From assembly GCA_965644265.1 (NCBI GenBank), contig OZ286465.1, forward strand, positions 7,130,001-7,194,000: DNA of 64,000 bases, written 5' to 3'. The position numbers and the translations under genes are program-made. The notes beneath the pieces were generated by a model. The model did not search any database and was not told where the DNA came from. It was given only the letters and a program-made list of their open reading frames with translations. Source of the stretch: Glycera tridactyla. Lineage: Eukaryota. Position 1 is the first letter of the stretch, and each line of letters starts with the position of its first letter. This document shows positions 10,159 through 33,796 of this stretch, piece after piece.

Positions 10159-11392
10159 TAGGCCTGTAGGCCCCAAAAGAATGGCAGCAATACCACAGCA
10201 TGACTCCTGTCTCCGAATATGAAAGTAACACAAAACATCAATCTCACCAACTTACAATTTAATCGAATGGTATCTCATAAAAACAACCTGAAGTTTGACA
10301 TGAGAGTAGTACCTATGCAAGTCAACATCATCTGTAGCTCTGAAATTTAAGCTCATTGGAACCTTTTTCTGGGGAGTTACCTTTTATTGATGTGTATTGG
10401 TTTCATAAATTTTAACCTTCTGTTAGGGACCCAGAAGGAGGAGTTTGGAGAATGATCCCACCCATGCCCATTGCACGGGCGTCACAATGTAGCACAGGTG
10501 GAGCTGATGTGACGTTGAACCCCCAACAAAACAAAAAAAACAAATATCGGGATAACTTCAGAACACGGTCCTAAATGCAATGAACAAATAAAGCATTTGA
10601 CATGGCTGCTGAAGTGGCTGCCTAGCCTAATAAGAACGAATCTATGAACTAACTGTGTTAAATTCCCTTCGCGTAAGGGGAAAATCACCCCGGGGGAAGT
10701 CTGAAGCCATGTTTGCAGCCATTTCAGCAGCCTCATCAGCAGCCACTTCGTATTCTGAGTAAAAATGAAACCCGAGATAGTTTATGATGAAATAAAGTAC
10801 ATATTTTCTCACTTTACATGTGTTATGTTGATTTGTAAACAGCCGTATGTCATCCCTAATGTGATGTAATACTATCCGCATCCATAACTAAATCGAAAAG
10901 TAAATCAAGGAAATTACCTTAAGATTCCGTGTGCAGCATTATCGTATCAATTCTAAATCAGTAAATAATCAGACCAGAAGTAAGTGAATCGGCGCCAAGA
11001 AGAAGGAGTGTCATTGCGCACAGAGAAAATAGTTCCTTAGTTACTGTCATGTTTTCTATGAATTAAACGATCGTTTTGGCGTCATACCTCTTCAAATGTG
11101 CTTTTCATACTAATTTGATGTGAACAGTGGTTTTAAATGACTTTGAACCCGGATTCCGATTTTAGTGTAATTCGCGGCGAAAATGACGCAACCAATCAGC
11201 GTGTGAGATTTGGTCACGTGACCTAGCGGGATGCAGTCACGTGACCATTTCACCAGTCAACTCTTTCACTTTTGAAATTCGCTTGCGTTACGATCTCACA
11301 CGATATGGAGTATATTTGAGTGGACCAGAACACGAGAAGATTCAATTTCTTTTCTACGTGAAAAGAATGTTCTACGAAAAGGATGTTACTGC

Positions 11393-12235
11393 ATGGATTG
11401 CCAAGTATGGATGAGGCAGGAGCGATACAATCAAAGAAAAATTGATGGATATGTCTTTAAGTGTCTGTCATGCAAGTTGCGCAAGTCCATCCGTGATGGT
11501 TCATTTTTGTCCAAACAAAAAATGGAATTCCGGTATGTTATCATGCTTCTGTACTTCTTCGCAAAGAACATAGCCATCAATGTAGCCTCTCAGATGTGTA
11601 ATGGTGTGGTTTGCGAGCACTCTGTTACTGATTGGTTCAACCTATTCAGAGATCTGATGTGGCGTTACGTTGACAAGAATGAGGAGAAAGTAGGAGAACC
11701 TGGAACCATAGTTGACATTGATGAAAGCTTGTGGAGAGGAAAAGCCAAGTACCACAGAGGCAGACATCCCCCTAATGCTCCTTGGATTTTTGGAGACACA
11801 CAGAAAGTTATTTTGCGTCAAGTCGAATCTAGGACAGCTGAGGTTCTTCTAGGTTGCATAGAAGAGATGATTGAGCCAAGAACCACAATCATATCAGATG
11901 AGTGGAGGGCTTATAATGGGATAAGTCAGCACAGAAACCACTACATACATAAGACAGTTTGTCATGCTGAAGACTATGTAAATCCGGATGACGATGAAGC
12001 CCATACACAGTCTATGGAAGGATTTTGGGGTAATGCTAAGCTGTTGATCAAACGTATGCATGGTGTGAGACATGATAGGTTGGGACCATATCTGAGAGAG
12101 ATACAGTACAGGTGGAACCATAAAGGTCAGGATACCTTCGAAGACCTGCTTCAGCTGATGGGAACTTATTACAACGTAACAAACAACGACCTGCCAGCAG
12201 AAGTTCTGGCAGCCATGCCTGATGCGCGCCTTTAG
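11393..12235 (+). CDS. Merlin / IS1595-ISXO2-like DDE transposase
   Basis: Motifs VDIDESLW, IISDEWRAY and HTQSMEGFW, plus an N-terminal Cys ribbon (CYCMDC...FKCLSC). The frame is open from 11276 but the first ATG is at 11393. TIRs not found. Confidence 0.9.
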   Translation: MDCQVWMRQERYNQRKIDGYVFKCLSCKLRKSIRDGSFLSKQKMEFRYVIMLLYFFAKNIAINVASQMCNGVVCEHSVTDWFNLFRDLMWRYVDKNEEKVGEPGTIVDIDESLWRGKAKYHRGRHPPNAPWIFGDTQKVILRQVESRTAEVLLGCIEEMIEPRTTIISDEWRAYNGISQHRNHYIHKTVCHAEDYVNPDDDEAHTQSMEGFWGNAKLLIKRMHGVRHDRLGPYLREIQYRWNHKGQDTFEDLLQLMGTYYNVTNNDLPAEVLAAMPDARL

Positions 12236-13819: not shown

Positions 13820-13829
13820 TGGTTCAATC

Positions 13830-15719: not shown

Positions 15720-16800
15720 CATATATTCATTAACGGATAGGAGAAAAATTGAAGACCGCATTTTCACACTGTCATCAGTCAATATTGAATTTTTACTCCC
15801 ATCCGTCAATATCACACATTCAATGACGGAATGGAGGAAAATTGAGGACCGCATTTTGATATAGATCCGGTGGGGTCAACGTCATAAAAGGGTCCTCATA
15901 AATTCTATTTATTTTTCAATCATTCAATCATTCAATATTGATTTTTCACACTGTCATCAGTCAATATTGAATTTTTACTCCTATCCGTCAATATCATACA
16001 TTCAATGACGGAAAGGAGGAAAATTGAGGACCACATTTTGATGTAGATCCGGTGGGGTCGTCATAAAAGGGTCCTCATAAATTCTATTTATTATTCAATC
16101 ATTCAATCAGTCATCAGTCAATATTAAATTTTTACTCCTATCCGTCAATATCATACATTCGATGACGGAAAGGAGGAAAATTGAGGACCGCATTTTGATG
16201 TAGATCCGGTGGAGTCAACGTCATAAAAGGGTCCTCATAAATACTATTTATTATTCAATCATTCAATCAGTCATCAGTCAATATTGAATTTTTACTCCTA
16301 TCCGTCAATATCATACATTCAATAACGAAAAGGAGGAAAATTGAGGACCGCATTTCGATGTAGATCCGGTGGGGTCAACGTCATAAAAGGGTCCTCATAA
16401 ATTCTAGTTATTTTTCAATCATTCAAAAAGTCATCAGTCAATATTGATTTTTCACATTGTCATCAGTCAATATTGAATTTTTACTCCTATCCGTCAATAT
16501 CATACATTCAATAACGGAAAGGAGGAAAATTGAGGACCGCATTTTGATGTAGATCCGGTGGGGTCAATGTCATAAAAGGGTCCTCATAAATTCTAGTTAT
16601 TTTTCAATCATTCAATAAATCATCAGTCAATATTGATTTTTCACACGTCATCAGTCAATATTGAATTTTTACTCCTATCCATCAATATCATACATTCAAT
16701 AACGGAAAGGAGGAAAATTGTGGAAAAGTGAGGACCGCATTCTGATGTAGATCCGGTGGGGTCAACGTCATAAAACGGTCCTCAGAAATTCTATTTATTT
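15720..16800 (+). repeat. Tandem satellite-like array, ~160-185-bp unit, ~6 copies
   Basis: Recurrent GTCATCAGTCAATATTGAATTTTTACTCCTATCCGTCAATATC...GATCCGGTGGGGTCAACGTCATAAAAGGGTCCTCATAAA. Unit length varies through an internal sub-duplication. Confidence 0.95.
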
Positions 16801-17581
16801 TTAAAACTAGTGACAATTCGAGAGAGAGAGAGAGATAGATAGAGAGAGAGAGAAAATTAATCATGCAATAAAGGGTAATAACACATGTATTTCATTTATT
16901 TCAGGTCTGGCTCAACAGTATATACAATTGACCTCGTGCAACAAAGGCAATAATCCATTCGGAGAAAATCGATCGGTATTAGTTTCTACAGTCGTCACCA
17001 GACTCTGTGGGTTCCAACATTGGCGTGCAGGTGATTTCTTGTTTGCAACTAACGGATCTAAAGAGAACTATTAATTCCATGATTGTCCGACAGGGGTGTG
17101 TAAGTTTATTCGTGTTTGCGACTACCGGATTGTAAACGAACTATCAGTTTTACTTGTTTCCGTACACATACGTGCCAGTGCATAGGGAAGTACGCCTGAC
17201 GGATCGACACGGAACTAATAATTTCACAAGTAGTCGTTGAGAGGTGTCGCATCACGTACGCATTTCGGACATGCGGAAAGAAGGGAACTATTAGTACCAT
17301 ATTTCAACACGGAGTGGCACGCAAGTGCACAAGGGAATTCCCTGCTTAGAATGACGTAGGCGCATCTATTTTGATGGAATACCCATAGCCATGATGACGT
17401 AGGCGCACTTTTATCATGTTTTTCAGACGGAATTTCCTTTAGTTAGACCTAAAATATGTCATTTAAAATTAAAATGAATTATCATTGCATACGTGGACAT
17501 CCAATGGCGCCATTATTATTGTTTTGAAGTCTGAGGGTTTTTTTCATTCATTCTAAATAATCGTGTTATTAAATACTCACA

Positions 17582-18540
17582 CTAGGACTGTGAATCATTG
17601 CTGGATTCACTGTCCGAGATCTGAATAATGGAATCAGAGAGAATGATCTTCGGAGCTTGTTTTTCCAGACCTTCAACACCAATTATGACGCAACTCTCTG
17701 CTGATGTGTTCCATAATGATTCAGTTGATGAATCTTCATCATTCAAGTATTTCTCGGAAGAAGGGAACATAGGATGCGAAATTAGCAGTTCTGGATCCGA
17801 ACTTTCAACGATACTGTCCAAGTCTGTCCTTACATTACCACTTGCTGGTATCGGAGAGGAATTGTCACTGTACAGCTTTGGTGTGCTGCAAGCTACTGGT
17901 GGAGAAAGTGCTTGATCTTAATGTATGCTTTCAATTGTTGATGAGTTGCTAGCCAGAATATCTTCATATTTAATTGAAAATGATGGCTTGGATACTGTCA
18001 ATGTAGGTGATTTCATAATTACATCCAAATCAGGCACTTCATATGGTATGTCTTCATTTACTAGCTCTGATACCGTACATGTATGTGATACCTTCATTAG
18101 TTTTGTTCGCTGAAAACCAACATCTAAATCAGGCAGTTCATATGGTGGACTGGCTTGCTTGTCATCAGGAATTTTGCATGATTCACTGTAAGTCGTCGTT
18201 CTTGGAATTGGTTTCTTTCTTGACATAACAGCAGTTATCTCAGGCAGTTCATCAGGTACAGTATCATTGTCTGAGATGTCATGCTTAACTTCTAAAGCCC
18301 TGTATGATTCCTGAGATAGGAAACTGCTCAGACTGACTATTTTGCTTGGCCCAGGGTGTTCTTGAACTGTAGATATACCCTTCTGACTTTCGCATCTACA
18401 GTGAAAGGGTTCTTGATTCTCCATGAGGTCCTGATCAATGGCTCTTAAGCAGGCTGGGTCACCAAGTATCATTTTTAGAAGGTAGGACATGTCACAATTC
18501 TTTGGTTTAAATCTGAAGGTTTGATGTAAAGTACGGTAAC
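17582..18540 (-). pseudogene. 3' part of an unknown ORF split by the DIRS insertion (Ser/Asp/Glu-rich C-terminal half)
   Basis: One frame from 18540 to TAG at 17582 with a single in-frame TAA at 17918; repeated PYE(L/V)PDLDV motif; followed by a GTGAGT donor-like site at 17580. Confidence 0.7.
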
Positions 18541-18808
18541 CCCCCCCCCCCCCAGGTTTATTAATTTAACCTGGGGATCTATACTTACCCATTTCTCCCT
18601 CAAATTCTGCATTCCCCAGGCCGAAGTGCCTACGTGCGAACATAACTACAAAACTTTTTAGGGAGACAGCCCTCCCGTTTATGGGATCCACTAGATGGCT
18701 CCCCCTACTATGCCTCCCGACGTCACCTGGCAACCGCTGTGTCTCTGTGTATTTTTTCAACGAGCTTATATATAGCTCTACAGCGGGGACGGACGGGAGG
18801 GACCATCC

Positions 18809-18903
18809 AATTTGAGGGAGAAATGGGTAAGTATAGATCCCCAGGTTAAATTAATAAACCTGGGGGGGATCTATCTGTACCCATTTCTCCCTCAAATTCT
18901 GCA
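18809..18903 (-). other. DIRS internal complementary region (ICR, circle-junction copy)
   Basis: The first half is the reverse complement of 18547-18610 and the second half of 26076-26111, joined through GGGGGGG-ATC. Confidence 0.95.
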
Positions 18904-18952
18904 ATGAATATGACACGGATGGAGGGTGTAGAGTCATAAGACTAATATATAT

Positions 18953-19330
18953 CTCCGTGTCTCTCAGGAAGAACCTATACCCCTAAAGTAGGGTAATGTT
19001 ACCAAACCCGAGTATTTAACTTGTACAATATATAGACCAGGAGTCCCAACTCCGTGTCTCACGGGAAACAACCCATACCCCTAAAGTAGGGTAAAGGTAG
19101 TCAGCACCCGTGTATTAAAAATGTACAATATCAGACCAGGAGAAAAACTCCTTGTCTGTCGGGAAGACTTCCTACCCCTAAAGTAGGGTAAAGTCGCCGA
19201 TGCCCGACTATTAAAACTATGTACAATATTGACCCAGAGAAAAACTCCATGTCTCTTGGGGATCATATCTGACCTCAGACTAAAAATGTCCCCAAGTCTT
19301 CAAAAGGTATAAATGTACATACAGTAATAT
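18953..19330 (-). repeat. 97-98-bp structured tandem repeat in the DIRS 3' UTR (3 full and 1 diverged unit)
   Basis: Units start at 18953, 19050, 19148 and 19245; invariant TACCCCTAAAGTAGGGTA hairpin in units 1-3; compensatory stem changes between units. Confidence 0.85.
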
Positions 19331-19351
19331 AAAAAACATCAGTAATTACAT

Positions 19352-22252
19352 TTACTCATTTGGAGTGATTACTGATTGAGCCATTACTAAGGGTCCCAAG
19401 GAATATAGATCTAGTGCGTGACCGCACATATCCCTTAGGTAATATGAAGCGAAGGTATTCCCAGACTTCCAGAAAGCGGCCCTCAATAATTCCTCTACTG
19501 AACTAGCCTGATTCAGTGAATTCCAGGATGTCGCTATTGCCCGAACCTCATGGGCTGAGATAGAGTCTGGAAGATCTTTTGACCTTTCTGCTTCTTCATA
19601 AGCTGATCTCACCACCTGTTGGATCCAGGCTGAAATTCAATCCACTCTGATTTCACTGGATGTACCTGGACTAGGGGGAATAAATAGCCGAACTCTATTC
19701 CCTCTAAGAGGTTCAACTTTCTGTAAGTAAAAACGTAAGCTCTTACAGGACAAAGAAATGCTCCTCTGTCGTTGCTATTAGGTGGTAAAGCCGGGATTAT
19801 CACTCCTGGTGACTTCTTTGTTGGTTTCTGTCCCTTGGCCAAAAACCCCAGTACAGAAAATAGTTGTACTGAAGTCATATCAGCGGCAAATCGGACGGAT
19901 CCTCTCGAACCTGAAAAGGCATGAACTTCGCTTCGGCGTCTACCAGTGCCACCAAGAAAGCTGTTTTCCTGGTCAAATCTAACAAGGAACAATCTGCTAT
20001 AGGCTCAAACCTTGAACCTTGAAGAAATTTCAAAACAACTGATAAGTCCCATTGGGGAACAGTCCTTTGTGACACTGGTCTCTCCAGTTCAAAATTACTC
20101 TGCAAAGCTTTAATATTCTTATGATTCAACATGCTACCATCAGTAAAAGCAAAAACCGATTGCATCGCATTTCTATAACCTCTGATGGTCGAAGGGGATA
20201 ATCCTGATTCAAACAGGTAGATAAAAAATTCTACCACTGACGGTGCAGAGGGACGCTGTGCTCTCTACACCATCCTGTCCACTTCTTCCATCTTGAGTCA
20301 TAAATCTTGGCTGATGACAGCCTGACGGACCTAGCGATCCGCTCTGCTGCCTTTGCAGAGTAACCCTTCCTGGAGAGGGCACCCCGGATAGACACCAAGC
20401 AGTCAAATTCATAACCTGAGGGCGAAAATGATGAACCAGTTTGGTGCCTACCACTTGAGTCATGAGATTCTTCTCGTCTGGCAGTTCCAACGGAAGATCT
20501 ATTGAAAGTTCTAAGAGGTCTGGAAACCACGACTGATTCAGCCACCAAGGGGCCACACAAATCAGTGTGATCTCCAGACCTCTCAGATGTCTGAGAATCT
20601 CTTTGATAAGAGCTGTCGGGGGGTAGATATAAGCCGTCCCGAAACGATTCCAATCTACTGCTAGAGCGTCAACCGCAAACGCTCTCGGATCTGGGTACGG
20701 GCATATGAATACTGGCAGTTTGGAATTTGCTGGTGTAGCCATGAGGTCTATTGTGGGGGAAAGTTTGTATTTCAGAGTTATCTGATTGAAGATTGTCTGG
20801 TCCAACGACCATTCTGTTTGTATTGGTGTTGCTCTTGACAGAGCATCTGCCAGAACGTTCCTGCGTCCTGGTATATGACGCACTCTGATCGTGACCCCCA
20901 ATTCCTTGATCAACATAAATATCTGCCATGCGATTCCGCATAAAAGAGCTGACCTCGTACCCCCCTGTTTCTGAAGGTATGACACAGTCGTCGAGTTGTC
21001 TGTGAATATCATCACAGTCAGATTCCTCACCCATTGGGAGAATTCATTCAAGGCTAACAGAACAGCCTCTAATTCGAGGGCATTTATAGAACAACCTATA
21101 TGAGACTGAGGCCAAGTCCCTGCTTTCTGTCTGATTACCTGGCCTGTTGTGAGACATGCTCCCCAACCTTTCAGAGAAGCGTCCGTCATAATCGTTGCAG
21201 ATGGTTGTGGAGGAGAAATCAGAATTCCCTGATATACGTTCTCCTTCCTCTGCCACCACTCGAGGATCTCTAAGATCTACTTGGGAATTACAATCAATAT
21301 TTCCATGGAGTCGGAAAACGGTGTCCATCTGGACAGCAGAAACATCTGCAGGGGTCTCATGAAAATTCTTCCCAATGGTATGAAGTCTGCCATGCTCGAC
21401 ATGTGACCTAATAATCTTAGAATAGCCCTGACTGGTTGCCGAGGCCTCCTGAGAAAGACTCTCACACACAGATCCATGTTGCTCACTCTCTTCAGGGACG
21501 GACGGACCATCCCGGATTGGGTGTCGAAATCGAGACCCAGATAAGTGAACTGCTTGCTTGGACAGAGGTCTGACTTCTGCAGATTCACAATCCAACCCAG
21601 GCTGGCCGTCATTTCTAGAACGTAGTCCAATTGATGAGTTAAAACAACTGGATCTTGGTGCCTCAGCAACCAGTCGTCGAGATAGAAATGAATCTTGATT
21701 CCTCGACTGTGTAGATGGTGCGCCAGTTCCCTCAACACCATTGTAAATACTCTCGCCGCCGAACAAAGACCGAACGGGAGGGCACGAAACTGGAATGCCT
21801 CCTCTTTGGATATGGCGAATCTTAGATATTTTTGAGAGTTTTGGTGAATCGGGATGTGGAAGTAAGCGTCTTTTAAATCTATTGATACTGTCCAATCTTG
21901 GGGAGATATTGATTTGACTACAGATGTCGCTGTCTCCATCTTGAATTTTGCGTTTCTGACTATCCTGTTCAGAGGCTTTAAATTTATGACTGGACGAAAG
22001 CCTCCCGTTGCCTTCGAGACCAGGAAGAGGTTGCAATAAAATCCCGGTTCCGCATTTTGATTGACTGGGATTATTGCTCGTTTGTTCAACATCTCCCTGA
22101 TCTCGTGGAGCAGTGCCTGTCTCTTCATCTGCCCCTTCGGTAGTGAAAAGGGCAAAAAGGTTTTCGAGAGTGGTGGCTGCTCCAGAAAGGACAACGACAG
22201 GCCCTCTCTTACTATCTCTAACACAAATCTGTTCTGAGTTAGGAGATTCCAT
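19352..22252 (-). pseudogene. DIRS tyrosine recombinase ORF with long N-terminal extension overlapping RT/RH
   Basis: ORFs 22252-21044, 21034-20669 and 20653-20231 share one frame (two stops); three frameshifts follow. Catalytic motifs RRSEVHA, SAHEVRA and WKSGNTFASYY. Confidence 0.92.
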
Positions 22253-22295
22253 TGATTTGGAACTGCAAAAGACGCCCCCCTACTACTTCCACATC
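20209..22295 (-). pseudogene. DIRS reverse transcriptase - RNase H - adenine-methyltransferase-like ORF
   Basis: VVGGRL start motif then a frameshift at ~22258; IDLKDAY and FYLDDWL (RT); TDASLKGWGA, TDNST and NVLADALSR (RH); IDLMAT...AYIYPP (MT-like). One in-frame TAG at 21277-21279. Confidence 0.95.
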
Positions 22296-22317
22296 TGAAG
22301 GACTGGCGCTCGCCATC

Positions 22318-24934
22318 CTAGGGCTGGCGCTTCTTGCCACGTCCTCTCTTATTAAATGTCACCTTGAATTCAGTTTTTGCATTTGACTGATCTTGATTTT
22401 GTCCTGATACATTCTGATCTTGTTGTCTATTTGAACTCTGGCCACCACCTCTGCCACGACCACGACCTCTTGACTGTCCTCTGCCACGAGAACTACTGCG
22501 ACCTCTCTTCTTAGGGAATCCCCGAGAAGAAGAAGAGGAATAATCTGAATGCTTTGGACCAAAATCATAAGCCATCTCTCTCTGCCTCCTCCCTACCTCA
22601 AAAGACTGTTTGGAAGCCTCGGCTAACTTGCCTCCAAACAAACAACTCAGGCTGGCCCAAAGGTAAAGCTCTCAGCTTATCCTTTGTATCTTCGTCGAAA
22701 TCAGTACCTTTTATCGCCGCAGATCTTCTAGACAACTCCATGTTGCTGACGACCTTCAGGACCAACTGTGTAGCATGTTCTACCGCCTGAAGGCCGACAC
22801 GGATGGCTTCCTTTTGTTTGGCTTTAATGTCTTTGATGTCTGCCTCAGACATCTCAGTTGAACACAAACCCGCTGCCAGCGTGAAGTCCGCATAGCTCAT
22901 AGCCTTCAAAGATTCCCGTAGGATAGTTTCATCATTGGAAGGCTTTAATTCATTTTTGGATGTCCTACCAAAATTTGAATAATCACGGTCAATCTGTGGA
23001 GCCTGCACTATATATCTGCGTGATCTATCCCCTGTATCACGAATCCTATAGGATCTTGAGTTACATCCATAAACTCTTGGTGCAGTGACTTTGAAATATT
23101 TAGTATTGGCTTCAACCAGACCCCCCATATCTAATTTGAAATCCTCAAGAGGTGTGGTGATTGGCAGGATCTCCTGCTTCTCTTCTCTGCCTTGCAAAGC
23201 CTTGTCCAATATTTCCTGACTTCCAATTAATAAAGGAGAGATAGGAAGAGCTGTCTCAATAGATGCATCTACCGCCCTAGTATTTAATTCATCGTCAAAA
23301 GACGTATCCATTGTCATTCTAGCAGCCATTGTCTTTCTATGATGGACAGATTCAGGATTAGGGATCAAGGTAGGGAGAACATCTGAAGTAAATCTCCTAA
23401 AACTCCTCATCCTTCTTTTCACCTCTGGTTTCTCTTCTTCACCATCAGAATCTCCCACCGGATCTTTGACTTCATTCACCTCCTTTCTCTCTAATCTTTT
23501 CTCCACTTTTTCCATCCTAACTTTCATGGCTTGCATCATAGCATCTCTTGACATGTCGTCTATACTTCTTTGAGATCCTGTAGGTCTAACAAAAGCAGAA
23601 TTGTCAGTTTCTCCCATAACAGCTGACCTCCCTGGAGCACTAGCAGTACATGGAATGGACCTAGGCTTTTTAGCAGGACGAACAATCTCATCTGCTTTCC
23701 TTTTCAGGGCTTGCTCTGCTTGAGATACCCTGCGGGGCATCCCATAACCCAACTGGGCCCTCGTATCTGCCATTAAAAGCATCAGTTGTTCCATGGTCTT
23801 CTTGATTGACTGACTTCTGTCAGTAAAATCACTGACTCCTGTACCTCTAACCTCAGACCTAGCAGGAGAATTAACTGAGGTATCAAGGTTATGAATTGAC
23901 TCGTCTCTGGGTACCTCCCCATCTGATTGCTCTGGTGGATCATCTACCTCATCAGGATCATTGACCCACACATCCCCAGGACCAGACGCATCTTCCCCAC
24001 TGGAATCCGCAATATGTCCCGTGTCAGGTAAGGATTGACATCCTCGCCTTTCTGAACTATATTTGTCCAGTAGCCGATCTATCCTCAGTCTCGGATATGA
24101 CGTGCCTCCGTCATTCCTACTGGACCTGTCCGGAGATTGGGGTCCCGAGACAACTTTTCCCAAATCAGAGCTCAGCCTTGAGCTTTTGTTCTGTGCAATA
24201 GGCAAAGCCTTTCGCCCTGACACAGAACTACCTCCAGCCTTGGAAGCAACTGATCTGACCGAGTTTGCTTTGCCCACTCGAATGGGAATTCTACTCTTTT
24301 GAGTAGACTGTGCCAAGGGAGCTGATTCTTCTGGCCACTCAAAATCATCCTGGAAATCCCTTATTTCAGGAGCTGTCTCGATTTCATCATGTGGCTCTTC
24401 ATCAAGCATATCATCATTATTCAAAAGACCCATTTCCTGCAATTCAATATCTGGTTGTCTAATCTCTTGAGATTGTATAATATCATGTGACTTCTGGTCC
24501 TTCAATCCTTCTGCTTTCTTTGCTGCCCTTTGCAAGGCAATCTGTCTTCTCTTACGTAAAGAAGAAGCTAAGTGAGGGCGTAACAATAACTCCTCGGACA
24601 TACTGTCAATACTATCGACCTGAGAACCTTCAGAAGGGATTTTCAAAACTTTAAGTTCCACAGAGGGCATCCTTGCTGGCTCAGAAATACGAGATGGGAC
24701 AGGGCTAGCTCCTACAGTAGTACATGATTTAGTTTTCTTCAAGGATAGCTTCCTTCTTTTATAATGGGCAGACCATTTCTCCAAAGGCCACTGAGAACAG
24801 ACACCACACACTTTTTGACCAAATTTAAGGACATCCTCGGACTTGCCGCAGTCTCTACAGGAGGGACATTTGGTGTGATCGTCCCATGTCTCCATGACAT
24901 GGCCACAACTACCCTTTTTCTGACCAGACGACAT
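22318..24934 (-). pseudogene. DIRS gag-like ORF1
   Basis: Likely ATG at 24934 (MSSGQKKGSCGH...CPSCRDC...CGVCSQW, Cys/His-rich N-terminus). A 4-bp AAAC slip at ~22635 shifts into the RGRG-rich C-terminus (22641-22318). Confidence 0.85.
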
Positions 24935-24989
24935 GATTCTTGCTTGTATGGAGTATATTTCAAAAGAGGGTAACACCAACACGGGTACT

Positions 24990-25320
24990 GGAGTGAATAT
25001 GTGCACTTTATGTGCAATCAATTGTGATTTGTGTATAGTCAAAATTTCACATCCGGACACTCAACACCTGCTGATATGAAAATCACAGACCCCCAGAGGG
25101 CCATTTCAAAGATTGGTGCAGAGTGACCTAGAACAAGACAACTGATGGCATTCACAGTGCTGGGTGAGTATGTGCACTTTGTGTGCAATCAATAGTGATC
25201 TGTATATCTATTCAATATTTCACATGCGGAGACTCAACACCTGCTGATATGAAAGTCACAGACCCCCAGAGGGCCATTTCAAAGGTTGGTGCAGAGTGCC
25301 CTAACAAGACACTGATATAT
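24990..25320 (-). repeat. ~173-bp tandem duplication in the DIRS 5' leader
   Basis: CTCAACACCTGCTGATATGAAA(A/G)TCACAGACCCCCAGAGGGCCATTTCAAAG at ~25060 and ~25233. Confidence 0.85.
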
Positions 25321-26110
25321 CATCATTAGTACCTGAAGTCGCCGTCGCGCTAGTCGATGGCGCTGCTAGAATCTGAATTATTTCTGAAAACAGAACCACC
25401 TACGGAATTCTAAAGAACTAATAGTTCCAAAAGTCGCCACGCTTTTTTGTGGTGGCGCTGCTAACTGCGTGGAGAAAAACAGAACCACCTAGCGGCGATC
25501 CTGAACACCATTAGTTCCAATTATCGCCGCGCTTTTAAATGGTGGCGCTGCTAACTTTGCGGATACGCGAGCGAACAAACGATCGTACAAACGATCGCGG
25601 CAATTATGCGACATAATACACGAAGTGACCAACGAACAAACTGTAAACAAACATGTTGGTCAAAATATCACACAAAATCACAATTCAACTGCCATCACGG
25701 CACCGCGCACCCCTCCCGTGCTCCGTGCACCCTTCTCAATACTCCAAAATACAGGCTAAACAGTTCGCAAACTATTCAATAATCCTTCACTGATCTGGAT
25801 AATATCACATAATGAACATAATATCCTTTGAATGAATGAATCTGAAAGGAAATGAATAGCCGTAGGCCACGTAAAACAAATTTTTACGGAGCCCGGGTAT
25901 TCTCCAACTGCTCACAACCAAGCGAAGTTGAAAAATACACAGAGACACAGCGGTTGCCAGGTGACGTCGGGAGGCATAGTAGGGGGAGCCATCTAGTGGA
26001 TCCCATAAACGGGAGGGCTGTCTCCCTAAAAAGTTTTGTAGTTATGTTCGCACGTAGGCACTTCGGCCTAGGGAATGCAGAATTTGAGGGAGAAATGGGT
26101 ACAGATAGAT

Positions 26111-26615
26111 CATTGTGGTATGGATGAAAAACCAAAGTGTTGATCACGTTTCTTCTAATATTTTCTCCGCCGTCACGTTGTTGTTTTCGCTCAAAAACAT
26201 TGAAGTATATGTCTGTCAGCTCACTCGGACTGTCAATATAGATCCACGGAGAAATACCGTTCATGTAGTTCTTTACACCTTTTGCTATGGTAACATTAGT
26301 ATGATAGTATGAGTCTTTTCCTGGAATCATATAAGCACACGCTTTGCAAAAACTCTCTGGTTTTTCATGTTCAAACTCTAATTGACTCAGCTCTTGCATC
26401 TGTGTGTTCCTGATTCTCAATGGGAAATCCACCAAATTCCTCACACATTCATACTTCGAGCAGCATTGCCTTAAATCGAGGAATACTCCACAGGGCCTGA
26501 ACATCAACTGCTCATTGGGATCCTACAGGTGGATCCTAGCTAGAGGATCACTTGGATTCAATCGTGTACGCACAAATGGGTGTCCAAAAACACCTTTGCA
26601 ATCCAGGTGGGACAT
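26111..26615 (-). pseudogene. 5' part of the unknown ORF split by the DIRS insertion (Cys-containing N-terminal half)
   Basis: ATG at 26615 (MSHLDCKGVFGHPFV), in-frame TAG at 26523-26525, then ...PCGVFLDLRQCCSKYEC...FCKACAY...VFHPYHN up to the DIRS edge. Confidence 0.7.
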
Positions 26616-26687
26616 GACTTTATCTCCTGAAAGAAGAGTGAAATATATATAGCACAAAAAAATTATTTAAAAAAACTTACAGTGCAT

Positions 26688-27246
26688 TCATTTCTGTAGC
26701 AATTTATGGACGTACGTTCTGTGTTTCCCATCCATGTACTCATATGAGTTGTTCACAACGTTATATGCATACAAGTTATAGTACTTTCCTTTGGCGAATG
26801 ACTTGAACATTAGGCCTATTCGACTGGTCGGTTTCGTTAAAAGTGCGTTGACGGAAATGTACTCAACGATCGTAGCCCAGTCGAATAGGTTTCGTTTAAC
26901 GAGTTCAACGCAGTGAAACGACCGTTGAGATCGTACACAACGAAAAAGTGTTAAGCGACCACTCGAATACAAAGCGTAGTCAACGGACCCGCCGTACTCA
27001 ACGAAACCTACCAGTCGAATAGGCCTATTGATCCGAAATCTTTTTCTGCAGAAATGTCTCTTGCCAACCCATACAGTCGAACCCATTCCATGAAAATTTC
27101 AGGGTCCAGCCCGTTGGCCCACACAAAGGCACATAGTATCATACGTTGGTCATGTCGCAGATTCTTTGTCCAAAAAGACATATATTTGCAGCACCAATAA
27201 TGTCCTGAATTGTTGACCATAAAGAATAATATTCATCTGGAGCCAT
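26688..27246 (-). pseudogene. Small ORF (~115 aa reconstructed) resembling the primase large-subunit (PriL/PriX) C-terminal domain
   Basis: MAPDEYYSLWSTIQDIIGAANI / frameshift ~27182 / FWTKNLRHDQRMILCAFVWANGLDPEIFMEWVRL...DFGSI [MITE] MFKSFAKGKYYNLYAYNVVNNSYEYMDGKHRTY. Removing the MITE plus one TA restores the frame. The family call comes from motif recall only. Confidence 0.6.
26813..27025. mobile_element. 213-bp MITE with 26-bp TIRs and TA TSD
   Basis: TA|GGCCTATTCGACTGGTCGGTTTCGTT ... AACGAAACCTACCAGTCGAATAGGCC|TA; a partial internal TIR copy lies at ~26875-26900. Confidence 0.92.
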
Positions 27247-27679
27247 TGACGTACCTTGTACAGCAATATATGACTATTAGGTGATACTTGCTGGTGAAGT
27301 GTGTGGCGCGAAAGAATACAAACAGCGACACCAAGCGGTTTCGAAGACCGAAAGTAGTCCCTTAGATCTGGCGACCGCATCACGAGAGTTGAACGAGATT
27401 TATTCATACGCGAAAAAACATGGCGGGGAAGGCAAGCAAAAATCAGTTTCAAAAAGTGGATTTTACGTTTTTACAGTGAACAACAGACAACAACAAACAC
27501 AAGTAAGCCAGAAATACACATTCCTCATGTTTGATATCATGTTTATTGTTTCAAAGTCAACATTATTGCATTCTGGACCTCGTAAATGCTATTTATACAG
27601 TTTATTAAAACATCGTTCCTATTAGAGCAGGCAGCCTTTTTTGCAGCCTTTCTTGCAGCCTTTTCACTTCTTCCTTTAT

Positions 27680-29418
27680 TTCGGTTGTATGGACAGAGAA
27701 AATGATGACATTGTGCCTGTTAACCATTTCAATGATTCATATATACATATATGGAGAAAGTATAGGAAAGTAACTCACTAATATGTGAGTGTTCTTGCTT
27801 TTGTGCCACCAATGCTCATTGTCATTAGCAACACAATTGCCATTCCATCTCTTCCAAAGAGACCTGAGCAAACTCATGTCCACAAGGGAAGGGATAGAAC
27901 GTAGCTGTGAAAAGAATATACCTAGATCATGAATATGTCTAGAAAAGAAAACATGTTTATAAAATTCTATAAGCCCTGTGCCAGTACCTGATGCAAACTC
28001 ATGCACTGATTCAGAACCCCAAACATGACTTGGGTGAAATAATTGACCAGGCCCCCATATGTGGCTCCTGAGGCCAACTCATGAACAAGCACATGGGGAT
28101 CTAGATAACTGGAGAATATGTCTCTAAAATAAAACATGTCTCAGATCCATGATCCTGAGGCAAACTCATGATCCTGGAAATGAATTTTAGAATTGCATGG
28201 CTGATTTGATTCATGGTTGTACACCCCTGAGGCAAACTCATGAGTGACTTCACCATTCTTCAAAACTTATCAGTGGAATATAGTATATCACAAAATATGG
28301 AAGAAAAATGAGCTATGGTGCCACATCCCTGAGACTAACTCATGGGTGACTTTGCCATGTCTCGAACTTTCAATGTTGGCATAACGATAAAAACGGTTAA
28401 ACATAAAATTGTCAGCTGAAATATTTGGAGCTGGAAGAGATATTGGCTAGGTGACTGGGGCTGGTGGCGGGATGAAGTTGTGGTGATGTGTCTCACTTGG
28501 CAGCCGGGTGGCAAATGGGAAGAGTGCAATGCAGCATGGTCCCTTGTGGGATGCCAACTTCCTGTGACCCAGATTTCTCGAACATGATTGGCTGATGTCA
28601 TCCTCTCACCCTTGCAGGGGTATGCTCTTGATGGAGTGATGTGAGGGGGGTCACTCCTTCATCCATTTCACCGAAATTATATTACCTTGTAATATATGTT
28701 TTCGGTTGTATGGACAGAGAAAATGATGACATTGTGCCTGTTAACCATTTTAATGATTCATATATACATATATGGAGAAAGTATAGGAAAGTAACTCACT
28801 AATATGTGAGTGTTCTTGCTTTTGTGCCACCAATGCTCATTGTCATTAGCAACACAATTGCCATTCCATCTCTTCCAAAGAGACCTGAGCAAACTCATGT
28901 CCACAAGGGAAGGGATAGAACGTAGCTGTGAAAAGAATATACTTAGATCATGAATATGTCTAGAAAAGAAAACATGTTTATAAAATTCTATAAGCCCTGT
29001 GCCAGTACCTGATGCAAACTCATGCACTGATTCAGAACCCCAAACATGACTTGGGTGAAATAATTGACCAGGCCCCCATATGTGGCTCCTGAGGCCAACT
29101 CATGAACAAGCACATGGGGATCTAGATAACTGGAGAATATGTCTCTAAAATAAAACATGTCTCAGATCCATGATCCTGAGGCAAACTCATGATCCTGGAA
29201 ATGAATTTTAGAATTGCATGGCTGATTTGATTCATGGTTGTACACCCCTGAGGCAAACTCATGAGTGACTTCACCATTCTTCAAACACTTATCAGTGGAA
29301 TACAGTATATCACAAAATATGGAAGAAAAATGAGCTATGGTGCCACATCCCTGAGACTAACTCATGGGTGACTTTGCCATGTCTCGAACTTTCAATGTTG
29401 GCATAACGATAAAAACGG
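27680..29418 (-). repeat. Ngaro B2-A2-B1 terminal repeat block
   Basis: 27680-28396 is near-identical to 28701-29418. 28472-28700 matches 34520-34744 apart from one duplication and one deletion in A1. Confidence 0.95.
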
Positions 29419-29535
29419 CCAAAACCATGGAGTGGCAAACTCAATGGTGCGCCAACTAGGAAAGGATGGCCAGCAGACACAAGATGTCAGAGGATATATG
29501 GTCAGCCCTATCACACCCATTTGTAACCCAAATGT

Positions 29536-30434
29536 TTATTTCACATGTATGGATTCTGGCCGAATGTATGCTCGAAAGGCATTTGAGCGCCATCTCCCTA
29601 GAGACATGATCTGCTGATCAGTGAATCCCTGCCTAACCATATCCGTGGCTTTCCCAATGCGGAAAGAGTGCGTGTTGAAGTTCCCTGACCAGCCCAAAAC
29701 ACTAATACATCTTCGTAAGGTGCGGGAAATCTACGCCCTGGTTAGGGGCTCACCCTTCCTGCTGGTGTAAGCATAATGCCTTGAGGGGGGAGCCATGAGT
29801 AAGTATTGTTGGTAGAGCCTGACTGGGCAAACCGTTGATACTTAGATGGATGGAGCTGTAAATTTGGGGTTGACCCTTCTGAATGTTTGTACGACCTGAA
29901 TGTCAAGGCTAGGACCTTTTGTGGCCCATTTCCCTTCAACTGGAGATCCCTGCTCTTAAGAATGTGAGTGAAAGTGTTTGTGACACAGATTTCACTTGCT
30001 CTCAGGCAAGCATGATACATAACTGCAAATATCGCCTTATACAAGGCTATGTTGTAGGGGTCATTGAAAACATGTTCGATGGCAGGGACCAGACTGACAA
30101 GGTTTTGTAATCCTAGGGCTGTACGCTTAGTGCTCTGCCCATCTCTTCGTGATATCGCCTTCAACAATTTCGCGGCACGGAATGCAGACGTTGGGTCTGG
30201 TTCAAGGCATATTTTATGGGCAAATGCTATGGCAGATAGGTGGGTTCGTATTGTCGAAGCCCGCATACTTTTGAGTGCTAGGTGGGAAATAAAGAGTGAT
30301 ATATCATCAGCAGAGGCTGGGATGGCCCGTCGTTTGCCCAAAATGTGATTCATGAATTGTGAGAGGAGTTGCCAACTACGCTCATAGGACCTCCTGGATG
30401 ATGCTGTCAGGCTCTGTTTCAGCAATCCTGCCAT
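29536..30434 (-). pseudogene. Ngaro tyrosine recombinase
   Basis: YHACLRASE (Arg I) in the annotated ORF. After a frameshift at ~29840 and an in-frame stop: HSFRIGKAT...LGRWRSNAFRAYIR, with stop at 29536-29538. Confidence 0.93.
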
Positions 30435-32311
30435 GGCAGTGCGAAGTTTTCTAGCAGCATTTCCTTCGGGATGGCTGTGGCTTGCGCATCCATGTCATAT
30501 TTGGTCAGCAATGCTGGAGAATCCTGCAAGTGGGAAATTTTGTCAGCAAGGATGTTAGTGACACCTGGTATATGTTCAGCTTCAAACGATATGTTATATT
30601 TCAGAAAGAGAGACATCATTCTGCGGATAATATGCATTAACTGTTTGCTTTTTGAGGTTTTCTTATTTATTGCGTAGGATATGGCTATATTATCAGTCAT
30701 CAGGCGTATTGAACTGTTCTTTATTCTGGAGCCAAACATGTAAATCATGACTAGGATAGGATAAATTTCACGAACTGTGATGTCCAATTTCTTCCATGTT
30801 CTGGGCCACCTTGCTATTATCCATGCCTTTTCCAGGCAGCCTCCCATCCCAAGATCTGATGCATCTGTGTACATCTTAAGGGAGTCAGATGTTACTTGGG
30901 GTTTTCTAAAAATGGAGACCCCATTGAAATTCTGTAAGAATTCGAGCCATACTAAAAGGTCGGCCTTCATGCCATGTGTTATTCGAATTTTGTGGTAGGG
31001 CTTTTCGATTTTCATTGTTGCATCAATGAGACGACGTAAGAAGGCCCGGCCAGGGAGGACACTCGTGGCAAAATTCAATTCTCCGATGAGTGACTCAAGC
31101 TCCTCGTTCTTCAATTTTGAAAGAGTCAATACCTCTTGAATCACGTCTGTCAATTCTGAGATTTTGCTAACTGGGAGTCTTGCCTCAAATGCCACCGAGT
31201 CCAATTCAATTCCCAGAAATGACAGGCAGGTCACTGATGGCTCGGTCTTATTCTCGGCTATTGGAACCCCCAGGTCAGTTGCTAGTCTCATGAACCCATC
31301 TAAATATTGCTTGCAAATTGCTGCCTCTTTGGCGATAAACAGAAAATCATCTAGATAATGCAGGACAACTGCATAGGGGAAGTGTTTTTTGAAAATCCAT
31401 TCCATTGCTGAGGAGAAACGTTCAAAAATTTGGCATGAACTTCCCAAGCCTTGGGGCAGACATTTGTCATAATAATATTGTTCCTCCCATGCCATTCCCA
31501 TCTCGCAATACTCTGATGGGTGAAGGGGGATGAGTCTGAAAGCACTCTTTATATCTGTCTTGGCAAGGTAAACACCCCTCCCCAAATCTTGGATGTATTT
31601 CATGGCATCACAAACGTTAGAATAGCTGACTGTTTTGCAAGATTGGGGAATCAAGTCATTAATCGATGTGCCATCATATGGATGGGAGAGATCGTGTATG
31701 AGACGAAATTTACCACTCTCTCTCTTGGCTCGTAATGACAATGGGGATACTTTGAATTCAGAGAAAGGCGGCTGGCCATGGGGGCCCGATATTCGACCTA
31801 GTGATATTTCCTCCTGCAGTTTTCGAGACACAGATGAGGGATGTCTTAATGTTATGCTTGCATTGCGGACCGGACCGGAGCAAGCAGCAATGGGCCCTTC
31901 ATGGCCAGTCATGAAGCCATGCATAAAGCCCTCAGTTAGGTACCAGAATTCATCTAGGGTATATCCTTCTAGGTGAAACCTAAGCCTGTCTATTCGCACT
32001 GGGGTTGGCAGCTTTGACAAATTTTGGCTTGCCGGAAGGAGAAACAGTGGGCTTTGATGGGTCATGGTCTTTGTCCTGCTGTGCACCGGTATTGGTTTTG
32101 CTATAGCATGGGAAGTAGGATGGGTGGCGTTTCTCACACTGCCAGCATTGGTGCTTGTAGCGACAGTTTTCATTATTCGGGCAACGGACCCCTTTGGTGT
32201 GGAACTGGATGCAGAATCCGGGTGGGATAGGTTGGGTCTGGGACTGACTTTGGCCACGAAAATTACCCTGTTTCTGGCCCCGGGTCCCACTCGATCGGTA
32301 TTGTTGGTCAA
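30419..32311 (-). CDS. Ngaro reverse transcriptase / RNase H ORF (uninterrupted, 630 aa)
   Basis: LPTPVR, FRLIHDLS, AKTDIKSAFR, YLDDFL, TDASDLGMG, TDNIA and NILADKIS; the first ~110 codons overlap gag. Confidence 0.95.
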   Translation of the reverse strand: MTNNTDRVGPGARNRVIFVAKVSPRPNLSHPDSASSSTPKGSVARIMKTVATSTNAGSVRNATHPTSHAIAKPIPVHSRTKTMTHQSPLFLLPASQNLSKLPTPVRIDRLRFHLEGYTLDEFWYLTEGFMHGFMTGHEGPIAACSGPVRNASITLRHPSSVSRKLQEEISLGRISGPHGQPPFSEFKVSPLSLRAKRESGKFRLIHDLSHPYDGTSINDLIPQSCKTVSYSNVCDAMKYIQDLGRGVYLAKTDIKSAFRLIPLHPSEYCEMGMAWEEQYYYDKCLPQGLGSSCQIFERFSSAMEWIFKKHFPYAVVLHYLDDFLFIAKEAAICKQYLDGFMRLATDLGVPIAENKTEPSVTCLSFLGIELDSVAFEARLPVSKISELTDVIQEVLTLSKLKNEELESLIGELNFATSVLPGRAFLRRLIDATMKIEKPYHKIRITHGMKADLLVWLEFLQNFNGVSIFRKPQVTSDSLKMYTDASDLGMGGCLEKAWIIARWPRTWKKLDITVREIYPILVMIYMFGSRIKNSSIRLMTDNIAISYAINKKTSKSKQLMHIIRRMMSLFLKYNISFEAEHIPGVTNILADKISHLQDSPALLTKYDMDAQATAIPKEMLLENFALPWQDC

Positions 32312-33005
32312 GGTGGGGCACTACTGCTGACCACGGACAGACCCCAAACTGACGGTCCCACCTGAAATGATGGTCATATTCTGCCCATTTTCCCCCACTC
32401 TTATAAATTTTCCTAATTTCTCTGCCATAAGTAAGTAGCTCTTTAATCTCAGCTCTATTGGCGGGAATCTCACAATAAACAGCCATGAATGATTCCCAGG
32501 CCTCTACCCATGAGTCAAAGTTTCTCAATAGTTTTGGCTTGCTAGCCACAACCCTAATTCTCCCCTGCTTCAATGTCAAGGTGTCTCCATCTTCTAAATC
32601 GTTGGGCGTTTGGATAGGTTGATGAGGGGTTGTAATGGGATGTCAAGATTTGCATTGTCCTGAGCAACCTCAATATCTTCAGGTAAGGCTTCGCCCTCCT
32701 GCCACTGCTCGTATGTTGTATTACCTGTGGGTGCCGTGATTGTGGCATTAGGTGTAGATGTCTGGGGTTGTGGAGCAGTCAACGTAGTCGACAGTGGCTG
32801 GTTTATAAGGTCAGTCGTTCTCGGTCGTTGTGCTCAGGCTCAGGGGCCTTCCTCCTCCGTTTTTCAGGCCGTGCTTGGTCGCTCTCTGTAACTAGGCCCT
32901 GATTCTGCTCCAGAATGGACACTTTTTGCTGAAGATCAAGCAGTGTTTTGTTCAGCTCACGCATCATCTTGGCCGAGCCACGCTTTTTGCGAATTTTTGG
33001 AGGCA
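31980..33005 (-). pseudogene. Ngaro gag-like ORF1 (frameshifted pieces)
   Basis: PPKIRKKRG start-like segment, coiled-coil, FDSWVEAWESF, WAEYDHHFR and a Cys/His finger CIQFH...CRYKHQCWQCEKRH. Confidence 0.85.
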
Positions 33006-33470
33006 CTAGAATGAAGAATAATATGTCATTGCCATGAAGGCATGACAAGACCTCTCGTGGACACGGCATATGCCCAGGACAAGGTATAATGAAGCGGCAT
33101 TTCGCACACGGCATGTGTGCCTGGAATAATAGATGAGTAATGCATGTGCGTGCACGTCATGTGCGGCAGGACAGATACTAACTCATGCATGGGCTCGGCA
33201 TAGAGGAGATCCCTGAAGACAGGCACAGCCTAGCAGGAAGGTGACTGGTCCAAATTTGGAGGTATATGCATGGCATATGCATGTTGAGAAAAAACCCCAA
33301 CACTGAGGGCTGACATCAGGTATACACGACAAGTGTTGGGTAAAGACCGGTATGGTTTACATAGGCTTTGAGTGGTATCTGGAAGCCACAGTGCTGTATT
33401 GCACAAAACAATGGCTTGGTGACTGGTTAGGAGAACAGCGGAGAGCTCGTTTCAGTCATCATTATTATTA

Positions 33471-33649: not shown

Positions 33650-33796
33650 CATTACATCAATGAATATAAGAGGAGGAAGAAATTTAAGAGGGGGGGGGGG
33701 GCGGAGGGCTTCTTGAATCATTAGGACCAAGTGCAATTGACAAGTGCCCCCAATTAGAGAGGCATACAGCTGACAACCAGTGAATTACAAGTAAGA

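Follow-up and report, generated by a model that had tools for sequence, protein, structure and literature searches.

A two-gene cassette inside a Merlin-type DNA transposon of Glycera tridactyla, a candidate accessory module

Features of the locus

We analysed a window of 64,000 nucleotides from Glycera tridactyla (assembly GCA_965644265.1, contig OZ286465.1, positions 7,130,001 to 7,194,000; all coordinates below are those of this stretch). A first-pass annotation had described at 17582-27246 a dead two-ORF cassette, which it thought less like an ordinary host gene than like an uncharacterised mobile or virus-derived unit. A DNA transposon of the Merlin (IS1595) type, spanning 10549-34769, encloses this cassette; within it the transposase and the two genes point towards each other, with an array of hairpins resembling the terminal repeats between them. 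The full span is 24.2 kb, of which three nested elements (DIRS1-like, Ngaro-like and MITE) together make up 61%; without them the Merlin unit is about 9.4 kb. The features are listed below, with the strand where one applies.

10541..10548: target-site duplication, left copy, 8 bp, CAAATATC
10549..10665, plus strand: left terminal inverted repeat, starting with GG; first 24 nt 21/24 identical to the right end
11276..12235, plus strand: Merlin/IS1595-type DDE transposase, 319 open codons (Pfam PF12762, E 3.5e-19)
15761..16805: tandem array of the Merlin terminal-repeat motif, units of 160-190 bp
17000..17420: CpG-rich region past the 3' end of ORF2, holding a degenerate repeat of ~73 nt
17582..18541, minus strand: ORF2, 3' part, 320 codons, end of the conserved domain, then tail
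18541..26111, minus strand: DIRS1-like retrotransposon, splitting ORF2
26112..26615, minus strand: ORF2, 5' part, 168 codons, Cys/His-rich conserved domain
26627..26680, minus strand: AT-rich GT-AG segment of 54 nt, whose acceptor ends 12 nt upstream of the ATG of ORF2
26688..26810, minus strand: ORF1, 3' part, 40 codons and stop
26813..27025: MITE nested in ORF1
27026..27246, minus strand: ORF1, 5' part, reading frame open from ATG 27220
27249..27257, minus strand: strong splice donor (GT at 27254), directly before ORF1
27258..27480, minus strand: CpG-rich region, a putative promoter with 5' leader for the cassette
27590..27679, minus strand: right terminal inverted repeat, inner part, local alignment to the left end with score 50
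27679..34744, minus strand: Ngaro-like tyrosine-recombinase retrotransposon within the right terminal repeat (split direct repeats, Pfam)
34746..34769, minus strand: right terminal inverted repeat, outer 24 nt, 21/24 against the left end
34770..34777: target-site duplication, right copy, 8 bp, CAAATATC, a perfect match to the left copy

The DIRS element proposed in the first-pass annotation was confirmed at about 18541-26111. Its 181-nt inverted terminal repeats are 98% complementary (181/185 identical), an internal complementary region lies at 18809-18868, and Pfam matches cover RT, RNase H and integrase-N; the RT-RH-MT and tyrosine recombinase of DIRS1-like elements are present, with a weak methyltransferase (E 0.055) and a fragmented recombinase frame. 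The MITE was likewise recovered, with inverted repeats identical at 25/26 positions and a TA (or AAT) duplication, and with both elements inserted in it the cassette has indeed served as a landing site. The Ngaro-like element has split direct repeats (715/718 identical, order A1-ORFs-B1-A2-B2), RT-RH, a tyrosine recombinase and no methyltransferase; a GDSL/SGNH ORF is presumably linked with Ngaro. Both retrotransposons have the terminal and internal repeats and the enzyme domains described for their classes (PMC3266345), and are later insertions, separate from the cassette.

The two reading frames of the cassette

Protein searches with both ORFs, recommended in the first-pass annotation, found relatives of ORF2 and no homologue of ORF1. 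An exhaustive profile search placed ORF2 in a family whose 18 unnamed members share 25-39% identity with it and have a median pairwise identity of 27%; of the 19 matches obtained, P0005 was left out of every alignment and count because it is a multi-cystatin repeat protein. Among 1.84 billion representatives there was no homologue above 39% identity and no close or named host orthologue, and a word-based protein search with the N-terminal half found none among 111 candidates.

Removal of the DIRS1-like element rejoins ORF2, as had been predicted, into 488 codons (168 + 320) with one internal stop in each part (26525-26523 and 17920-17918) before the final stop. Since DIRS elements integrate without target duplication (PMC3266345), the halves abut exactly. 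The junction is not fixed by the DNA alone, because the right end of the element has 14 G and its internal copy 7 G; it is fixed by the protein family, since 16 of the 18 homologues cross it gap-free (the remaining two end or diverge earlier) and the halves match a homologue-only profile without a gap, at positions 1-168 and 169-225. The long ORF is therefore real, and the present copy retains 26 of 28 highly conserved columns, all Cys/His positions included.

The tail of ORF2 is 269 aa long and Ser/Thr/Pro/acid-rich, while tails in the family range from 1 to 802 aa, with P0010, P0011 and P0020 lacking one and P0017 almost so. None of the 18 homologues belongs to a Pfam family, none of the 13 aligned members to a PHROG family, and the three recovered with contigs are unnamed singletons on contigs of 1.1-2.5 kb; in these traits, and in its low pairwise identity, the family looks like mobile DNA. 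Scans of the cassette pieces and homologues with Pfam, PHROG and NCBIfam gave nothing above cut-off, phage and plasmid records held no real cassette match, and none of eight candidate stretches for ORF2 in prokaryotic genomes was confirmed. Atlas searches returned weak, uninformative matches (RdRP fragments at no more than 0.91 with low shared-feature counts; a second search at no more than 0.88), and the family motif HPYHN was found in no paper, nor in 11 supplementary files of PMC8101967.

AlphaFold models 158 residues of the homologue P0004 at a pLDDT of at least 90 and its tail at below 50. The confidently modelled, Cys/His-rich domain of ORF2 probably binds zinc, and its tail is probably disordered. 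A fold search against the PDB and viral models gave no match at E <= 0.001, which does not in itself prove a new fold, and none of 48,161 chains reached Z >= 5; the AP2 domain (Z 3.3, rmsd 3.7, 67 aligned) lies within background. SUMO-interaction-like motifs are not enriched in the tails (nine observed, a number reached in 154 of 1000 shuffles).

ORF1 had been described as a single frame of about 115 aa at 27246-26688, which does not hold: the frame from ATG 27246 stops at 27141, does not share the phase of the part past the MITE (0 open codons), and may be a short upstream ORF or an old frameshift. The in-phase frame, one base off, is free of stops for 69 codons up to the MITE and for 40 beyond it, and runs for 105 codons across the MITE from its first ATG at 27220. 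Because a fully open frame arose in 72 of 20000 trials with shuffled letters, and frames of that length take in 3398 of 56388 positions (6%) in the flanks, ORF1 is probable rather than proven; we regard it as probably real, though misdescribed.

No homologue of ORF1 was found in protein, phage or plasmid searches, the word-based search included. Two of 52 candidate stretches in prokaryotic genomes were confirmed (L001 and L002), both short, and L002 was rejected on inspection as a chance match in an unrelated gene. The single-sequence model is too weak to use (pTM 0.39; best fold Z 5.1, to unrelated helices). A kinship with the C-terminal domain of the primase large subunit (PriL-CTD), considered as a lead, was not supported: ORF1 has no Pfam or PDB match, and the comparison with a plasmid primase was a weak test, because Pfam misses that primase too. 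The Arg spacing of ORF1 resembles Arg351/Arg355 of yeast primase, with Lys363 unmatched (residues from PMC2852410).

The 54-bp intron-like segment noted between the frames is present (GT-AG, 26680-26627) and its acceptor at 26627 is strong, scoring among the best 0.1% of AG sites, but its donor is weak (rank 127 of 3807 GT sites). The stronger donor is that at 27254, which ranks 13 of 3807. Joined to the 26627 acceptor it would, we infer, skip ORF1; splice sites were scored with a generic matrix, and splicing and promoters are predictions. CpG o/e is 1.42 over 27246-27480, against 0.52 window-wide.

The enclosing Merlin element

The right Merlin repeat escaped notice because the Ngaro-like retrotransposon splits it. 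The GG-starting repeats, at 10549 and 34769, extend imperfectly to about 110 bp and resume past the Ngaro insertion, the left one with an additional imperfect ~60-nt block at about 10604-10663; the score of the inner right part was matched by none of 2849 random window pieces (random maximum 44). Among 64,892 pairs in the window that are flanked directly by matching 8-bp words, only four reach at least 20/24 inverted identity, the Merlin ends among them, and the other three have palindromic flanks within local inverted repeats. Repeat length (24-462 bp in Merlin elements), the duplication flanking both ends (8 or 9 bp) and the single transposase gene between the repeats are those of the superfamily, the non-transposase genes being extra. 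A Lys/Ala-rich frame at 27551-27698, considered as the end of another gene, was rejected and is the inner terminal repeat. No second Merlin copy lies within the window, and an assembly gap of 192 nt (13290-13481) falls within the element.

The first-pass annotation had recognised no transposase, which is correct for 17582-27246 and incorrect for the enclosing element. The transposase matches PF12762 (DDE_Tnp_IS1595) at 69.7 bits against a cut-off of 27, and a search of plasmid records gave 37 matches, with eight of ten among the matches listed annotated as IS1595 transposase. Its catalytic triad (D149, D208, E248) aligns with the D, D and E of an IS1595 transposase and follows the IS1016 pattern given in PMC12561309. 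Pfam reported no Zn_Tnp_IS1595 domain at E <= 0.1, yet two CxxC motifs are present; absence of the domain is the usual Merlin trait, with exceptions. No in-frame ATG precedes codon 41, the 3' end falls in a 236-bp duplication, and a CpG-rich stretch lies upstream at about 11050-11300.

In each of six array units, an arm resembling the right end of the Merlin repeat is followed, after a short spacer, by one resembling the left end. The best match to the terminal repeat is 19/24, attained by 2 of 500 shuffled repeats; the best match of the motif outside the element is 17/24, and one unit folds into a hairpin (z -3.6). Further genes were sought at 12236-17581, where frames are short or broken and three scanned pieces gave no Pfam match; Rfam gave 0 matches. 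An ORF at 14968-15513, also without a Pfam match, is one we take to be a LINE-like fragment.

The Merlin superfamily is related to IS1016/IS1595, and the element agrees with it in its DDE_Tnp_IS1595 transposase (about 320 aa), in imperfect inverted repeats that end in GG, in the 8-bp duplication and in having internal tandem repeats (PMC8101967). Three curated mollusc consensus sequences average 1,635 bp (PMC10294476), and the present element is within the size range of the largest Repbase Merlin families. Unlike the Merlins described in PMC8101967, it has a separate two-gene cassette on the opposite strand with its own leader, and its internal array is built of terminal-repeat-like hairpins. 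The sole extra ORF reported for Merlins in that study is an antisense ORF overlapping the transposase in Symbiodinium, judged by its authors to be due to chance; no description of a Merlin with separate accessory genes was found in the literature searched, which did not extend to Repbase itself or to subscription papers.

Origin and possible role of the cassette

Since transposase and cassette lie inside one terminal-repeat pair and one 8-bp duplication, they inserted as one cut-and-paste unit, and that they moved together is close to certain. The ends at 10549 and 34769, the duplication and the transposase, all outside the coordinates of the first-pass annotation, overturn its view of an unclassifiable or virus-like unit and bear out its view of a dead cassette carried by a mobile element. 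Our preferred reading, to which we assign a probability of about 0.55 on the sequence features described, is that the cassette is an accessory-gene module of this large Merlin transposon, and a long-standing one in the Merlin lineage.

The strongest alternative, possible but clearly less probable, is that Merlin captured both genes once from another element or the host, in a Pack-MULE-like manner, as cargo without function for Merlin. The presence of a single copy in this window would fit such a capture, and the interior also holds the presumed LINE-like fragment. Tandem-repeat coordinates reach 10,335 in Merlin-1_DR and 13,661 in Merlin-2_DR (S1 Table, PMC8101967); such large Repbase Merlins mean that extra DNA can be absorbed. 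However, the cassette is complete, with its CpG-rich leader just inside the right repeat as a mirror of the transposase, and the 1.84 billion representatives searched include no close or named host orthologue. It also lacks another element's ends: 24 of 2,304,800 pairs reach 12/15 inverted identity, the best 12 without a duplication longer than 2 nt.

Far less probable is an origin from an endogenous DNA virus, a fragment of which ended up in Merlin. The compact two-ORF layout, the alternative donor directly before ORF1, the fast divergence of the family and its tailless members would fit such a source, and the small ORF inside an intron recalls what we take to be the densovirus NS3/NS1 cassette. 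A densovirus-like splicing layout was not found in the parts of the densovirus literature consulted, and helicase, replication-initiator and capsid domains are absent from the cassette; by Pfam, an NS1 with SF3 helicase appears neither in the ORF1 and ORF2 frames nor in the 18 homologues. The virus-derived origin proposed earlier finds no link in phage records, PHROG, the NCBIfam/Pfam scans or viral structure models, although the empty structure search (E <= 0.001) is not exclusive of a virus.

That ORF1 and ORF2 form one gene spliced through the 54-nt intron is highly improbable: 54 is a multiple of three, so that the ORF1 tail frame and ORF2 stay in register, but two stops lie at the join, the alignment column of ATG 26615 is Met in 12 of the 18 homologues, and the ORF1 tail (query residues 1-41) is covered by no match. 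Least probable is that ORF2, though a real protein family with strongly conserved structural residues, belongs as an exon to a single-copy, conserved gene of the host flanked by repeats by chance, since an exact duplication, GG ends, a matching transposase and the inner repeat block occur together here, identity never exceeds 39%, and two stops and two insertions are tolerated.

If the cassette is an accessory module, an inward-facing CpG-rich promoter at each Merlin end would drive the transposase from the left and, from the right, a single transcript carrying ORF1 and ORF2. ORF1 would be made from the unspliced transcript, or after removal of the 54-nt intron only, and ORF2 from a transcript with the 27254 donor joined to the 26627 acceptor. 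ORF2 would pair a domain stabilised by zinc, which contains an Arg-rich three-stranded sheet, with a tail that is disordered; our committed guess is that the domain would bind DNA of its own element, at the ends or the internal hairpin array, and that the tail would recruit host chromatin factors, the element being kept active or its transposition tuned. The DIRS, Ngaro and MITE elements arrived after Merlin, and these insertions and the two stop codons killed the copy.

Precedents for accessory proteins exist in other transposon superfamilies, in the parts available of PMC9587614 and PMC6719617. Kolobok elements have KolX and, in KolobokP, a His-Me finger; they share a DDE transposase with a second gene (on the opposite strand in KolobokP) and differ in superfamily and in their TTAA target duplication (PMC9587614, in part). 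Neither ORF1 nor ORF2 showed any similarity to known nucleases or helicases. The plant systems VANDAL/VANC and Spm/TnpA share a layout, a non-catalytic transposon-encoded protein alongside a motif that recurs within the element (PMC6719617 and bioRxiv 10.64898/2026.08.24.746577, both in part), but belong to plant rather than animal hosts, and Pfam and fold searches gave no link to ORF2. By analogy, VANC and TnpA, which act in this way for plant transposons, may model how ORF2 works, with binding and anti-silencing putative. ORF2 as a regulator of its own element is a tentative proposal; it would be a nucleic-acid-binding one, and no fold or family match supporting DNA binding was found. A little more doubtful is the full picture of an undescribed multi-gene Merlin lineage across invertebrates, in which one alternatively spliced transcript would encode ORF1, as a small partner, and ORF2, with a new zinc-binding fold, as a family-specific anti-silencing or transposition regulator reading the hairpin array, the equivalent in animals of VANC/TnpA in plants.

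The locus is a clean example of nested insertion masking a large element from annotation, one of three inserts splitting a terminal repeat. Merlin elements have been described as one-gene transposons, and a Merlin with a dedicated two-gene cassette, if true, would add Merlin to the superfamilies known to carry accessory proteins. It would also assign an orphan protein family, with at least 18 divergent members and without a Pfam entry or fold match, to a type of element. Convincing sequence-specific anti-silencing proteins of DNA transposons are, in the portion of the literature available to us, from plants, so that a candidate from an animal, whose target array is built into the element, would lend itself to direct tests.

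The Merlin element enclosing the cassette

The window has a eukaryotic, repeat-rich composition (GC 42%, CpG depleted) and presumably belongs to an invertebrate host. A search for shared ends returned a 20-nt inverted match (10553 versus 34765) that belongs to a pair of terminal repeats, each 24 nt long, at 10549 and 34769. The two agree at 21/24 positions, both begin with GG, and a perfect 8-bp duplication, CAAATATC, lies on either side. Among the 64,892 pairs in the window with 8-bp direct flanks, 4, including these ends, reach at least 20/24; the other 3 have palindromic flanks inside local inverted repeats. The right repeat resumes across the Ngaro-like element (27591-27648 versus about 10604-10663; score 50, 0/2849 random pieces). 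Merlin hallmarks are GG-ended repeats of 24-462 bp, an 8-9-bp duplication, and a DDE_Tnp_IS1595 domain (PMC8101967); judged by sequence, the element is a Merlin, agreeing in every feature tested. Transposase and cassette entered this site together as a single cut-and-paste unit, which now spans 24,221 bp (9,369 bp minus DIRS, Ngaro, and MITE; 192-nt assembly gap inside), and no ends belonging to the cassette itself were found within the window. That ORF2 is instead a host exon is the least probable reading that we weighed. A fragment inside the Merlin is presumably LINE-like.

Features of the element and its insertions
11276-12235: transposase with a DDE_Tnp_IS1595 domain, 319 open codons, DDE triad intact, no in-frame ATG before codon 41; last codons in a 236-bp tandem duplication (12191-12665); start broken or first exon spliced
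about 15645-15586 and 13700-13480, minus strand: candidate exons, perhaps third-gene remains; no Pfam match
15761-16805: six tandem units between transposase and cassette
17000-17420: CpG-rich, degenerate ~73-nt repeat, one short motif of which recurs in the 147-nt repeat at 13835-14103, 3 kb distant; possible third promoter
17582-27246, minus strand: cassette (ORF1 and ORF2)
about 18541-26111: DIRS1-like element; its inverted ends are 181 nt long, it contains an internal complementary region, and it encodes RT, RNase H, and integrase-N domains
27679-34744: Ngaro-like element, near-intact, which landed about 25 nt inward of Merlin's right end; its GDSL/SGNH-hydrolase ORF (33797-34513) is presumed to be a Ngaro component

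Because the repeats of the nested elements are near-identical (DIRS 181/185, Ngaro 715/718, MITE 25/26) and the elements interrupt Merlin's genes and right end, all three arrived later than Merlin. Elsewhere in the window, a ~5.5-kb segment is duplicated (2157-7722 and 38765-45521; about 80-90% identity). An array of a 46-bp satellite precedes each copy, and an insert in the second (43400-45089) is taken to be Penelope-like. An 80-nt inverted repeat inside the 46-bp satellite (9512-9682) is possibly another MITE. Exon-like minus-strand frames at 47262-49772 end in a Gly-Cys repeat, have no Pfam match, and look similar to a glycine-rich-domain host gene.

Reconstruction of ORF2 and its separation from ORF1

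The first-pass annotation had rejoined the DIRS flanks into a single 488-codon frame with two internal stops, and this reconstruction was confirmed (168 + 320 codons; stops at 26525-26523 and 17920-17918). DNA alone leaves the junction ambiguous, since the DIRS end has 14 G versus 7 in its internal copy. The ORF2 5' frame gave 19 matches among 1.84 billion proteins, of which a multi-cystatin protein was excluded; 16 of the 18 homologues kept cross the junction gap-free, and in a profile derived from 13 of these, positions 1-168 match the window on one side of the DIRS and positions 169-225 on the other. Sequence homology fixes the junction. The clean split of ORF2 is explained by DIRS integration without target duplication, as described in PMC3266345. 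The DIRS ends meet at a G run, whereas an NTT trinucleotide is common in that paper; at 20209-21276 the DIRS encodes RNase H and a weakly scoring Dam-like methyltransferase domain.

The ~115-aa ORF previously proposed to start at 27246 does not stand as drawn: the frame of that ATG ends at a stop at 27141 and is out of phase past the MITE. The ORF1 frame lies one base off (open for 69 codons up to the MITE and for 40 beyond it; first ATG at 27220). An equally open frame arose in 72/20000 shuffles, and frames that long cover 6% of flanking DNA. Protein, phage/plasmid, and prokaryotic genome searches found no ORF1 homologue, and a suggested resemblance of ORF1 to a primase subunit gained no support. 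ORF1 is probably, though not provenly, a real gene, which may once have begun at 27246.

A Met aligns with the 26615 ATG in 12/18 ORF2 homologues, and the ORF1 tail was covered by 0 matches in the 1.84-billion-protein search; to judge from these alignments ORF1 and ORF2 are separate genes, and a single fused gene is very improbable. Of the 54-bp GT-AG intron suggested between them, the acceptor held up (top 0.1% of AG sites), but the donor at 26680 ranks only 127/3807 among GT sites. A donor-like GT at 27254, directly before ORF1, ranks 13/3807; with the strong acceptor before ORF2, one transcript could therefore yield both ORFs, and by a generic splice matrix it would give ORF1 unspliced and ORF2 once ORF1 is spliced out. 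Within a few bases after the stops of both ORFs lies a donor-like GT (26680, and 17580 at rank 166/3807). Two unnamed homologues, P0013 and P0015, have short N-terminal extensions ending in Phe-Tyr-Arg or Phe-His-Phe-Arg directly before the conserved Met, the pattern expected on reading through a splice acceptor, which weakly hints at conservation of the intron preceding ORF2.

The ORF2 protein family

The family domain (~215 aa) is marked by invariant Cys pairs, a strand rich in Arg and Asn, a His-Pro-Tyr turn, and His-Cys-x-Cys at its end, and the window's ORF2 keeps 26/28 highly conserved columns. Homologues are 25-39% identical to the query (median 27% among themselves), 0/18 match a Pfam family, and the 3 recovered with records are unnamed singletons on contigs of 1.1-2.5 kb; the motif HPYHN is absent from searchable literature. 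For P0004, another homologue, AlphaFold predicts a domain with confidence (pLDDT of at least 90 at 158 residues), ordered as helix, three long antiparallel strands, and helix, then disorder. None of the matches stood out in fold searches of PDB, viral models, and a chain library (best Z 4.9, rmsd 4.8, 104 aligned). Eight or more conserved Cys/His suggest that the domain binds zinc, and conserved Arg on the modelled sheet points to nucleic acid binding. The tails (1 to 802 aa) are Ser/Thr/Pro-rich, with no enrichment of SUMO-type motifs. An acidic Leu-Pro-Asp-type motif occurs in 7/11 long tails (three copies in the ORF2 tail, 18021-18257), and Lys-Leu-Ser-Leu in 4/11 and also in the DIRS ORF at 22598-25060; both were picked after viewing the sequences, their recurrence being matched by 0/1000 shuffles.

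Origin and possible action of the cassette

We favour the cassette as an accessory module of Merlin, known here from one dead copy (probability about 0.55). The main rival, cargo captured once by Merlin, is possible but clearly less probable, and a viral fragment, with a layout that we presume to resemble that of densovirus NS3, is improbable.

Each of the six tandem units contains two arms, one resembling the right and one the left terminal repeat of Merlin, which face each other head to head across a short spacer (best arm 19/24, 2/500 shuffles; best outside the element 17). The array could be a set of binding sites; alternatively, amplification of a circle with joined ends could have produced it from a mini-Merlin. 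CpG-rich putative promoters at both Merlin ends, facing inward, would drive transposase and cassette, while ORF2 would bind Merlin's own DNA and its tail recruit host factors. This mode of action is likened to that of plant VANC, which works via a motif repeated within VANDAL (PMC6719617), and of TnpA, which acts at Spm ends (bioRxiv 10.64898/2026.08.24.746577). That ORF2 regulates its own Merlin is, by this analogy, a tentative proposal.

Large size is not new for Merlin, with Repbase families of at least 10.3 and 13.7 kb in PMC8101967, where the sole extra ORF overlaps the transposase and is judged chance. Kolobok has separate accessory genes (PMC9587614); for Merlin, literature searches found none reported, and a Repbase entry may already exist. 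Internal tandem repeats and imperfect ends, like size, are known in Merlin; what appears to be new in this element is its cassette of separate, putatively accessory genes.
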